Shown: piece by piece, positions 6,147 to 8,670 of the stretch
Layout of the letters: each line of letters begins with the position of its first letter
How positions within the stretch are numbered: position 1 is the first letter of the stretch
NCBI GenBank assembly: GCA_044869735.1
Contig: JBIOXR010000105.1
Coordinates: forward strand, 1 to 31,175
Direction: 5' to 3'
Source of the DNA: Chlamydiales bacterium
Lineage (GTDB): Bacteria > Chlamydiota > Chlamydiia > Chlamydiales > JAAKFR01
DNA: 31,175 nt
Notes under the pieces: generated by a model
Told to the model about the DNA's origin: nothing
Database searches by the model: none
What the model saw: only the letters and a program-made list of their open reading frames with translations
Program-made: the position numbers and the translations under genes

Positions 6147-6679
6147 TCGGATTTCTTATTTTCCTGCTGCTGTTCTTTTAGAAAAATTCTACGGTACTTA
6201 AAAATTAATTCAAAAAAGGCAAAAACTGCCATTACCGTAAAAAAGAGATAGATATAACCAGTAAAGACGAAACTGCATGAAAGACCGAGTAAAATGACGA
6301 ATTGAGCAAAAGTGGTCATTTTCCCCCAAAAGATGGCGCTCCATTCATATTTTTTCCACCCTCCCACGCAAAGCAGATAGACACCGAAACAACAAATAGC
6401 TATTTCTCTAGAAAGGAAGGCGAGGAGTTCCATATCGGTAAGTCTTTTTTCTAAAAAAAAGACTCCGCTGGCAAAAAAGATGAAAAAACGGTCCATCAGA
6501 GGATCGAGAATAGCTCCGAATTGGCTTGCTGTCTTTGTCTTCCTCGCTATAAAGCCATCGAGGAAATCGGTCAAAGCAGCGAGAAGCGTGGCAACTAAGC
6601 GGATAGCGACGTTAGATTGTAGAAAAGCGAATGCAAAGCTTGCTCTTGAAAGCGATAAGACATTCGAAAAAGTTAACAT
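6143..6679 (-). CDS. pgsA: CDP-alcohol phosphatidyltransferase (PgsA-like)
   Basis: Signature TDFLDGFIARK...FGAILDPLMD. Confidence 0.85.
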   Translation of the reverse strand: MLTFSNVLSLSRASFAFAFLQSNVAIRLVATLLAALTDFLDGFIARKTKTASQFGAILDPLMDRFFIFFASGVFFLEKRLTDMELLAFLSREIAICCFGVYLLCVGGWKKYEWSAIFWGKMTTFAQFVILLGLSCSFVFTGYIYLFFTVMAVFAFFELIFKYRRIFLKEQQQENKKSD

Positions 6680-7299
6680 TAATCGATTTCTTTTTCTGTT
6701 CGGGCCCTTTTTCTTTTATACCAAACGAAGAGAAAAGTTGCGATGGCAAAAACAGCAAAAATCGCAATATTGATTTTTGTAATTAAATGAGAGAAAAGCC
6801 ATTCACTTTTCCCAAAGTAATAGGCCAAAGAAAAAACAGCAGCTGTAGAGAAAAGGCATGCAAATAAATCGACGATTAAAAATTTCCCTAAACGCATTTT
6901 CCCCATTCCCGCCGTTAAAAAAAGAGGGTAACGGAATCCAAAAGGGATAAACCGCCCAAGGATGAGAGTTGTAATCCCATGCTTTTCATAATGTTGGCGA
7001 ATCCACTCCACTCTATCTTTACTAATGATCTTGGAAAACCACTTCAGTTTCAATAGCGGTGGACCTAACTTTCTGCCAGTAGAATAGACTAAAATATCTG
7101 CGATAAAAGCACCAAAATAGATGGCAGCATAGATCTTCCAGATGTTATCGGGGACGATTGTGCCAGCTAAAACACCTCCGCCAATGATGACGAGATCTTC
7201 ACTAATAGGCAGGCTTAATCCTGCCATAACTAACAAACAGAAAATTACATAGTGTGCAGCTTCGGCATGAGAGATGATAAAATTGAAAAGTGTTTCCAT
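6679..7299 (-). CDS. DedA-family membrane protein
   Basis: LPISEDLVII.GG and LGRFIPFGFR motifs; hydrophobic; 206 aa. Confidence 0.9.
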   Translation of the reverse strand: METLFNFIISHAEAAHYVIFCLLVMAGLSLPISEDLVIIGGGVLAGTIVPDNIWKIYAAIYFGAFIADILVYSTGRKLGPPLLKLKWFSKIISKDRVEWIRQHYEKHGITTLILGRFIPFGFRYPLFLTAGMGKMRLGKFLIVDLFACLFSTAAVFSLAYYFGKSEWLFSHLITKINIAIFAVFAIATFLFVWYKRKRARTEKEID

Positions 7300-7420: not shown

Positions 7421-7584
7421 AGAGACGTTCGTTGAATGAAACAAGTAGCGATTTTTGATGGATTTTTTTTCCCATTTTGCATGCGTTCCGAAGGACATAC
7501 TTGAATAAGTAGGCCAAGGAATGCATGTAAAATGGGGAAAAAAAGACGCAAAAACCGCTCTTGTCTCATTCAACGAACGTCTCT
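7421..7584. repeat. Palindromic intergenic element, copy 1 (164-bp rod-like inverted repeat, MITE/ERIC-like architecture)
   Basis: Perfect 19-bp terminal IR AGAGACGTTCGTTGAATGA (7421-7439) / TCATTCAACGAACGTCTCT (7566-7584). Near-continuous pairing runs inward to the apical TACTT-GAAT-AAGTA (7498-7511). The 27-nt core at 7492-7518 is identical to the reverse complement of 26697-26723. Confidence 0.9.
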
Positions 7585-7596
7585 TAGGGTACCTAA

Positions 7597-8670
7597 ATGA
7601 ATTTCAAATCAACCACTGCTCTCCTTGTGGGGAGTGGTGCATTAGTTGGACTATTGATCGGCGCTCTGGGGGTTATTCTTGGGGAAAAAAGAAATTCCCC
7701 AAATCCTATCCCATATCCACCCCCGCTCTGCCCTTTTGAAAATTGCATAGCGGCGGTCGGATGCATTCAACCTCTTAGAGATGAGCTTTGGATTGGAGTT
7801 CCTTTTGCTGAGGTCATTCAAGATGTTTATGTACAAGAAGGCGATGTCATCCCCAAAGGAGGCAGACTCTTCTCTCTATGCACCACTGCATTAGAAGCAA
7901 AAAAAAATCAAGCTAAAGCCGCGTTTACCACTGCTCTAGCTGAATATTCGCTACAGTTGTCACTACCGAGGGCAGAGACGATTCCCCCTCTAGAAGCTGC
8001 ACTAGAAGCTGCTAATGCTGAATACGAAGACTCACTCAAACACTATGAGCTTTACAAAAATGTCGATGAACCAAAAGCGATCAGTTTGGATGAATTAAAC
8101 CAGAGGATGTGGGCGGCCATTGCCGCCAAATTCAGAAAAGAACATGCAAGGGCCAATCTCGAGCTCGTAGAATCAGGAGCTTGGGTGAAAGATATTGAGA
8201 TTGCCAGAGCGAGGGTAATAGAGGCCAAGGCATGGATCGATGCTGTTGAAATCGAAATCGCTCGAGCGATCATCCGAGCTCCCTGTGATGGAGAAGTGCT
8301 TCAAATTAATATAAATGAAGGAGAAGCTGTTTCGGGGACGACAGTTCTGACACAACCTCATATCCGTTTTGGAGATACCCATCGATTCAGAATCTTGGTC
8401 AATATTGACGAAGAACAAATCTGGAGAGTGATAAAAGGCGCTAAGGCTAGAGCTTTTGCAAGAGGAAACAGCTCCATTTACGTCGATCTCGATTTTAATC
8501 GAATACAACCACTAGTTGTTCCAAAACAAGCGATTGCGAATCAACCTAAAGAACTGGTCGATGTTCGGGTTTTACAAGTGATCTATGAATTCGATCGAAA
8601 CGACCTCCCTTTTTACGTGGGTGAGCTCGTCGATGTTTATTTGGAAGGGAAACCCGATGAGATTACTTAA
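7597..8670 (+). CDS. HlyD/DevB-like membrane-fusion (periplasmic adaptor) protein
   Basis: N-terminal TM anchor; lipoyl-like halves EVIQDVYVQEGDVIPKGGRLF and IIRAPCDGEVLQININEGE flanking a coiled coil; DVRVLQVIY near the C-terminus. Confidence 0.88.
   Translation: MNFKSTTALLVGSGALVGLLIGALGVILGEKRNSPNPIPYPPPLCPFENCIAAVGCIQPLRDELWIGVPFAEVIQDVYVQEGDVIPKGGRLFSLCTTALEAKKNQAKAAFTTALAEYSLQLSLPRAETIPPLEAALEAANAEYEDSLKHYELYKNVDEPKAISLDELNQRMWAAIAAKFRKEHARANLELVESGAWVKDIEIARARVIEAKAWIDAVEIEIARAIIRAPCDGEVLQININEGEAVSGTTVLTQPHIRFGDTHRFRILVNIDEEQIWRVIKGAKARAFARGNSSIYVDLDFNRIQPLVVPKQAIANQPKELVDVRVLQVIYEFDRNDLPFYVGELVDVYLEGKPDEIT

Follow-up and report, generated by a model that had tools for sequence, protein, structure and literature searches.

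Palindromic repeats at start codons of environmental Chlamydiales as a probable family of MITE-like mobile elements

What kind of sequence is a long palindrome that occurs twice in a short stretch of a chlamydial genome, with the same apex and with arms that differ between the two occurrences? The window analysed here, by which we mean the whole stretch of 31,175 nt, belongs to a 1.45-Mb MAG of 154 contigs that is 91% complete and has 44% G+C. The 27-mer AGGACATACTTGAATAAGTAGGCCAAG forms the apical core of both copies and is found exactly at positions 7492-7518 of the plus strand and 26697-26723 of the minus strand; no further match with at most three mismatches occurs elsewhere in the window, nor does any occur in 100 shuffles. 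The box GATTTTTGATGG (7450-7461 in copy 1 and 26754-26765 in copy 2) is separated from the core by 30 nt in both copies, GCAAAAA follows 29 nt past the core in both, and the inner stems differ in sequence between the copies and keep their complementarity. The core, its distances to the two boxes and the pairing of the inner stems had been noticed in a sequence-only reading of the DNA and were confirmed, as was the remark that the wobble pairs in the inner stem of copy 1 are G-T on the plus strand.

Copy 1 is a complete palindromic element at 7421-7584 of the plus strand, identified by its hairpin fold and by the covariance model R1, with a score of 123.4 bits in the forward direction vs 47.7 bits in reverse. 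It folds into one 164-nt hairpin, with a minimum free energy (MFE) of -96.9 kcal/mol on the plus strand (z = -17.2) and -87.3 kcal/mol on the minus strand. The terminal inverted repeats are AGAGACGTTCG and CGAACGTCTCT, and the outer arms (AGAGACG.../...CGTCTCT) place the copy in a subfamily that we call type B. On the same strand, the conserved left box GATTTTTGATGG (7450-7461) pairs with the conserved right box GACGCAAAAACCGC (7545-7558), and the apical core (7492-7518) is a small hairpin, ACTT-GAAT-AAGT, between GGACAT and AGGCC. Two divergent genes flank the element: a VTT-domain (DedA-like) gene on the minus strand (6679-7299; PF09335), which starts 121 nt to the left of it, and an HlyD-family membrane-fusion-like gene on the plus strand (7597-8670; PF13437), whose ATG stands 13 nt past it. 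Copy 1 sits in the 5' leader or promoter region of the HlyD-like gene. A scan of copy 1 for sigma-70-like promoters and terminators found nothing inside the element, and no match to an IHF site was found in the core when it was checked by eye.

Copy 2 is a type A element on the minus strand, defined by its termini (tTGAACCTATCC and GGATAGGTTCAT), by its arms and by R1 (129.3 bits at 26651-26769). With the outer arms included it extends over 26630-26841 and is longer than in the first parse, and its left arm is split. Its length of 212 nt is due to a 45-bp palindromic element of a different family, which, with a TA, is nested in this arm (26780-26824, minus strand) and has a TA on each side (26778-26779 and 26825-26826). 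Five copies of the 45-bp palindrome occur in the genome, among them copies in contigs C60, C83, C118 and C56, and some of the five are at contig ends; the one in C83 (1-34) is at the extreme end of its contig. Copy 2 occupies the exact junction between the sdhA stop and the sdhB start. The stop codon TGA (26840-26838) of the sdhA-like flavoprotein gene (26838-28766, minus strand; PF00890 and PF02910) lies within the left terminus of the element, and the ATG (26631-26629) of the gene for the sdhB-like iron-sulfur subunit (25867-26631, minus strand; PF13085) is made of the final AT of the element and a G. This copy is partly decayed and has the rarer orientation; both copies of the window are atypical members of their family.

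That there is a real repeat family, as was first proposed, is evident from the host genome and from its relatives. Pattern search, BLAST and R1 found five full copies in the host genome (C105 twice, C129, C149 and C21), one deleted copy and three distant relatives, and these counts come from a fragmented assembly in which more copies may be hidden. The deleted copy (L006, C54:1323-1415) has kept the left half and the core, joined directly to the right outer arm, and has lost the right inner arm. The three distant relatives, C82:4269-4379 on the minus strand and C148:501-603 and C21:3058-3176 on the plus strand, are hairpins of 170-200 nt with about -100 kcal/mol; the layout of box, T-run, stem, loop, A-run and box is kept in them, and their apical loops and outer arms differ, which suggests a wider superfamily. 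By BLAST and R1, the element is present in 17 of 28 related genomes (titled Rhabdochlamydiaceae) in one to about 45 copies, the latter in genome G026, and it occurs in three further families of the order Chlamydiales. The earlier expectation of many copies per genome thus holds for some relatives and fails for the host genome itself. The termini in G026 number 52 and 54 (106) and are mostly 146 nt apart. When public genomes were scanned, one genome per species, the core pattern was found in more than 118 stretches, nearly all of them in MAGs titled Rhabdochlamydiaceae, Parachlamydiales, Chlamydiales, or Chlamydiae; the small remainder is close to the number expected by chance.

None of the resources consulted contains this family. 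At the gathering thresholds of Rfam, the window passes only for one tRNA and the element matches no family, in agreement with the initial opinion that no described family has such a core; in E-value mode copy 1 is matched best by generic models of miRNA hairpins, with scores far from reaching the threshold. A search of IMG/VR gave no match to the element terminus, literature searches found no description of a chlamydial MITE, and chlamydiae are not mentioned in a 2024 review of prokaryotic MITEs. We are apparently dealing with an undescribed family of mobile palindromes of ~165 bases that is common in environmental chlamydiae.

The arms of the palindromes covary, as had been claimed from the two copies of the window. 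Among 63 forward matches drawn from many genomes and aligned to R1, standard pairs fill 96.2% of cells vs 80.6% after shuffling, compensatory changes are seen in 25 of the 35 pairs (305 cells), and the covariation score is 0.463, compared to 0.152 in shuffled alignments (0 of 500 reach 0.463) and 0.09-0.13 with slid partners; these figures are generous, because the alignment (A4) was fitted to the structure of the model and the copies share descent. The covariation of the stems was also seen in independent runs of MAFFT and RNAalifold. The box variants of related copies are compensatory, GATTTTTAAAGG occurring with GACTTAAAAAGC and GATTTTCGAAGG with GACTCGAAAAGC. The terminal repeats covary too (ATGAGGCTATC with GATAGCCTCAT; ATGAATATATC with GATATATTCAT), which points to pairing itself as the conserved property. 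Even the apex takes part: the core stem of the C149 and C21 copies is AGTT/AACT instead of ACTT/AAGT, and several elements defined by termini alone have other apical hairpins, which also covary. Hence the 27-mer, originally described as an invariant core, keeps this status in the dominant subfamily and loses it family-wide; the geometry is conserved.

Strong covariation together with conserved internal loops and a conserved apex is also what could be put forward for a host-encoded cis-regulatory structured RNA, i.e., a leader, a riboswitch-like structure, a thermometer, or a protein-binding site that was repeatedly recruited before genes and has the core as its ligand or protein site. The position of the element, always beside a gene start, agrees with such an RNA, and so does the fact that the 27-mer strand is the sense strand in the host genome and in all type B copies. 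The same strand has an excess of G-U over A-C mismatches (314 vs 80). However, much of this excess comes from a few inherited columns, and the strand that it favours is usually antisense, so that we judged the asymmetry to be weak evidence for a transcribed strand; in the majority of relatives, the sense strand of the neighbouring gene is the one opposite the 27-mer.

More can be learned from the insertion sites. The insertions are found in the AT of start codons, very often at ATGA stop/start overlaps. Convergent genes flank the element at 0 of 74 loci, and one element end always faces a gene start. In 48 of 101 copies, one end forms an ATG from which an ORF of 60 codons or more runs away from the element; the end involved hardly ever changes (47 + 1 vs 3 + 1), and about half of the type A copies have no junction ATG. 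A co-directional upstream gene is present in 35 of the 48 ATG-forming copies, and in 16 of these 35 its stop codon is the TGA in the terminal ATGA. In G026, 13 of 20 copies lie directly before the ATG of a gene, in the sense of the ORF; the copies are related by descent, and this count, like the others across copies, overstates independence.

Relatives provide the corresponding empty sites. At the sdhA-sdhB junction of 25 relatives the element is absent, and the two genes overlap as ATGA or, in nearly all others, are separated by a spacer of no more than about 20 nt (two are longer). The murE-like and metI-like junctions are filled in G026, and the orthologous sites in G020, G024, G014, G012, and G027 are nearly all empty, with ATGA overlaps or short spacers. 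The VTT/HlyD pair retains its synteny in six relatives, with a ~115-nt spacer and no hairpin, and by this comparison copy 1 appears to be a lineage-specific insertion. A different long hairpin (L277; MFE -85 kcal/mol) is found in the VTT/HlyD spacer of genome G013, where it would be an independent insertion in the same spacer. The simplest reading of the filled and empty sites would be a 161-nt element plus a duplication of the AT of the start codon. The filled/empty pairs at sdhA-sdhB, murE-like, metI-like, and VTT/HlyD sites fit such a 2-bp duplication, a typical trait of MITEs, with the qualification that the duplicated AT is palindromic itself and not strictly separable from the inverted repeat.

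The main form of the element is a 165-bp unit, consisting of 161 nt and an AT at each end, with the ends ATGAACCTATC.../...GATAGGTTCAT. Of 105 distinct copies, 73 measure 165 nt and 103 fall within 163-167 nt. The inner domain is enclosed in relatives by the conserved ends ATGAACCTATCYCAC...GTGRGATAGGTTCAT, which are terminal inverted repeats. Copy 1 and its three closest siblings have the common inner domain and different outer arms (AGAG...CTCT), and since the same inner domain is found inside different outer arms, the family is modular. The copies are single palindromic units, and no tandem arrays were seen among them. There are also derived forms, namely internally deleted copies and copies with nested insertions. 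One internally deleted copy of 55 bp (L202; G020:C1:1500992-1501046) lies between a PP2C-like ORF and the start of an IscS/NifS-like gene (MIYLDNNATT); the upstream PP2C-like ORF extends 12 codons into the element and then ends with TAG. Genome G026 contains in addition 73-bp and 254-257-bp repeat families (L197, L198, L200, L201, and L203), which have the same 13-nt ends ATGAACCTATCCC and unrelated interiors; one of these repeats, at L203, is nested next to a 165-bp copy.

With units of 161-167 bp, up to about 45 copies per genome, terminal inverted repeats and filled/empty pairs, the family has the size, copy number, ends and insertion pattern of MITEs. We consider it probable that the hairpins are copies of a non-autonomous, full-length palindromic, MITE-like mobile element family of environmental Chlamydiales. 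A host-encoded regulatory RNA, toward which the sequence-only reading had leaned, fits less well and is in our opinion unlikely, given that the flanking genes are unrelated (sdhB, HlyD-like, murE-like, metI-like, iscS-like, and others), orthologous sites are empty in relatives, the copy number varies from 0 to about 45 among related genomes, and the conserved strand is antisense to the gene in most copies. Terminal inverted repeats, nested insertions and internally deleted copies also speak against such an RNA, as does the lack of an Rfam match; a MITE-like insertion with inverted ends and polymorphic sites fits these observations best.

No cognate autonomous IS, i.e., no transposase gene with ends matching those of the element, was found in a non-exhaustive search among DDE_3, DDE_Tnp_1, and Y1_Tnp genes, so that the case for mobility is made entirely by the distribution of the copies and by the filled and empty sites. 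An IS630-type or HUH/RAYT partner had been suggested at the outset. The DDE_3 (IS630-type) genes are absent in three of the five genomes tested, including the host genome, and are nearly absent from G026. The DDE_Tnp_1 genes do occur, with inverted repeats unlike the ends of the element. A 2.76-kb stretch between two termini at L105 was considered as an autonomous unit and proved to be an ordinary gene beside a decayed copy.

The HUH enzymes require a closer look, as they would offer another explanation for the covariation. A REPIN- or PATE-like element would be moved as a folded single strand by a RAYT or by an IS200/IS605 TnpA; the need for a hairpin would then maintain the pairing, and strand-specific insertion would produce the orientation. 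The hairpin does extend over the full length, and even the termini covary, as if pairing and not sequence mattered; the orientation bias of 47 to 4 and the excess of G-T wobbles on one strand are in line with the same mechanism. At the same time, Y1_Tnp does not co-occur with the element, being absent from the highest-copy genomes (G026, G024, G020, G012, and G000) and abundant in G028, where there is one weak copy. Perfect terminal inverted repeats and the apparent 2-bp duplication are unlike the ends of IS200/IS605, and there is no conserved 4-5-nt target beside one end only. Taken together, these data make movement by an HUH enzyme quite unlikely.

Another feature of the MITE-like elements is an open frame. 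It is read on the complement of the 27-mer strand, which usually is the sense strand for the neighbouring gene, begins with the element's own ATG and has no stop in the first 51 codons in 68 of 105 copies, compared to 0-11 copies for the other five frames. This frame is closed in 50 copies by the TAG of GGGATAGGTTCAT, with 4 nt left to the ATG of the gene, and in the 166-nt variants it runs to a TGA that overlaps this ATG. The frame is open more often than in column shuffles (51 of 73 copies; the shuffles average 35.9 and never exceed 45). In copy 1 and copy 2, where the 27-mer strand is the sense strand, every frame has stops.

The ATG start and fixed stop would be natural if the repeat were a multiplied gene for a small protein of 52 residues (MNLS...SWPTYSSMSCE...), but the substitution pattern led us to reject this reading, which is extremely improbable. 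Variation is not in excess at third positions, with entropies of 0.85, 0.85 and 0.77 for the three codon positions, and only 23% of the codon differences that involve a single base are synonymous. The amino-acid identity averages 47% where the nucleotide identity is 67%, and the core is crossed in one frame in some copies and in another frame in others, the total length being kept. By these measures, the internal peptide is under no coding selection.

The role of the open frame may rather be sought in translation of the neighbouring genes. After insertion, the left end still gives the upstream gene a TGA, plus an ATG, and the right end brings a GGGA/AGG Shine-Dalgarno-like stretch and the AT of the downstream ATG. 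Ribosomes would read through and unwind the hairpin, using the internal frame, would then terminate shortly ahead of the restored start and initiate again at the gene, and translational coupling would in this way survive the insertion. The end-to-end hairpin would hold the old stop and start codons side by side, and we infer that this juxtaposition would explain how the arms stay complementary while their sequence drifts. Such a scheme agrees with the account of mycobacterial MIRUs and with both published coupling models in a recent review (PMC12548453). It accounts for neither the conservation of the apical core, nor movement, nor the two copies of the window. One may speculate further that the MITE-like family represents a distinct, "translation-neutral" class of mobile DNA, that is, a hairpin transposon which targets ATGA sites and start codons, depends on a pairing-dependent machinery recognising the folded ends and the apical loop, and provides a stop, a Shine-Dalgarno-like stretch, a start codon and a read-through frame of its own, by which operon coupling would survive; hosts may then tune the expression ratio of the neighbours with the copies. 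We put this forward as a tentative and rather doubtful possibility.

Comparison with ERIC, CIR, and RPE elements, made when the repeat was first noticed, was apt, and other known systems can be added. By analogy, the element seems to resemble the MIRUs in function and the Rickettsia RPEs in form. MIRUs are direct tandem units of 46-101 bp and are not known to have an end-to-end hairpin, terminal inverted repeats or a conserved apical loop. Compared by description, they belong to another phylum and form tandem units, in contrast to the single palindromes found here. The likeness is in the position. MIRUs lie within operons or at start codons, and for the latter site a coupled ORF inside the inserted repeat is reported (PMC12548453); here, too, start-codon insertions carry an internal ORF, which stops 4 nt short of the ATG or shares an ATGA with it and would, judging from the sequence, be coupled to the gene. 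The RPEs are palindromic elements of about 100-150 bp from an obligate intracellular bacterium, which tolerate translation and keep an open frame (PMC10969869). The differences, again by description, are that RPE-1 to RPE-10 are inserted in frame within genes and are translated into the protein product, whereas the chlamydial elements were found at stop/start junctions and not in frame within protein genes; most of their frames stop before the ATG of the gene, and the element ends its frame with a stop and restores the start codon. Further, conservation is reported for the RPE peptide and is not seen for that of the chlamydial element.

The Correia elements (CREE/NEMIS) and ERIC/IRU are similar in being MITE-like, 100-160 bp long, with inverted ends and long hairpins, and co-transcribed with their neighbours. 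In Correia elements the duplicated target is TA, an IHF site and parts of promoters are present, and the pairing is mostly at the ends. The chlamydial element, in contrast, duplicates the AT within ATG and pairs over its whole length, and no promoter or terminator was found in copy 1. REPs and REPINs are likewise hairpin repeats whose arms evolve by compensatory change; the chlamydial element is larger and does not co-occur with RAYT/Y1 genes, and we know of no REP counterpart to its start-codon position.

The family is of importance both for genome annotation and for the biology of its hosts. Short-read assemblies of chlamydial MAGs are interrupted at the copies, and gene callers can be misled on start codons; a covariance model of the family would therefore be useful for annotation. 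With dozens of coupled junctions, each extended by the same 163 nt, the family also provides a natural set on which models of RNA unfolding and re-initiation could be tested. Finally, the family shows how selfish DNA can spread in the very gene-dense genomes of obligate intracellular bacteria: the element lands on the few bases common to a stop codon and the next start, and it brings the replacement signals with it.
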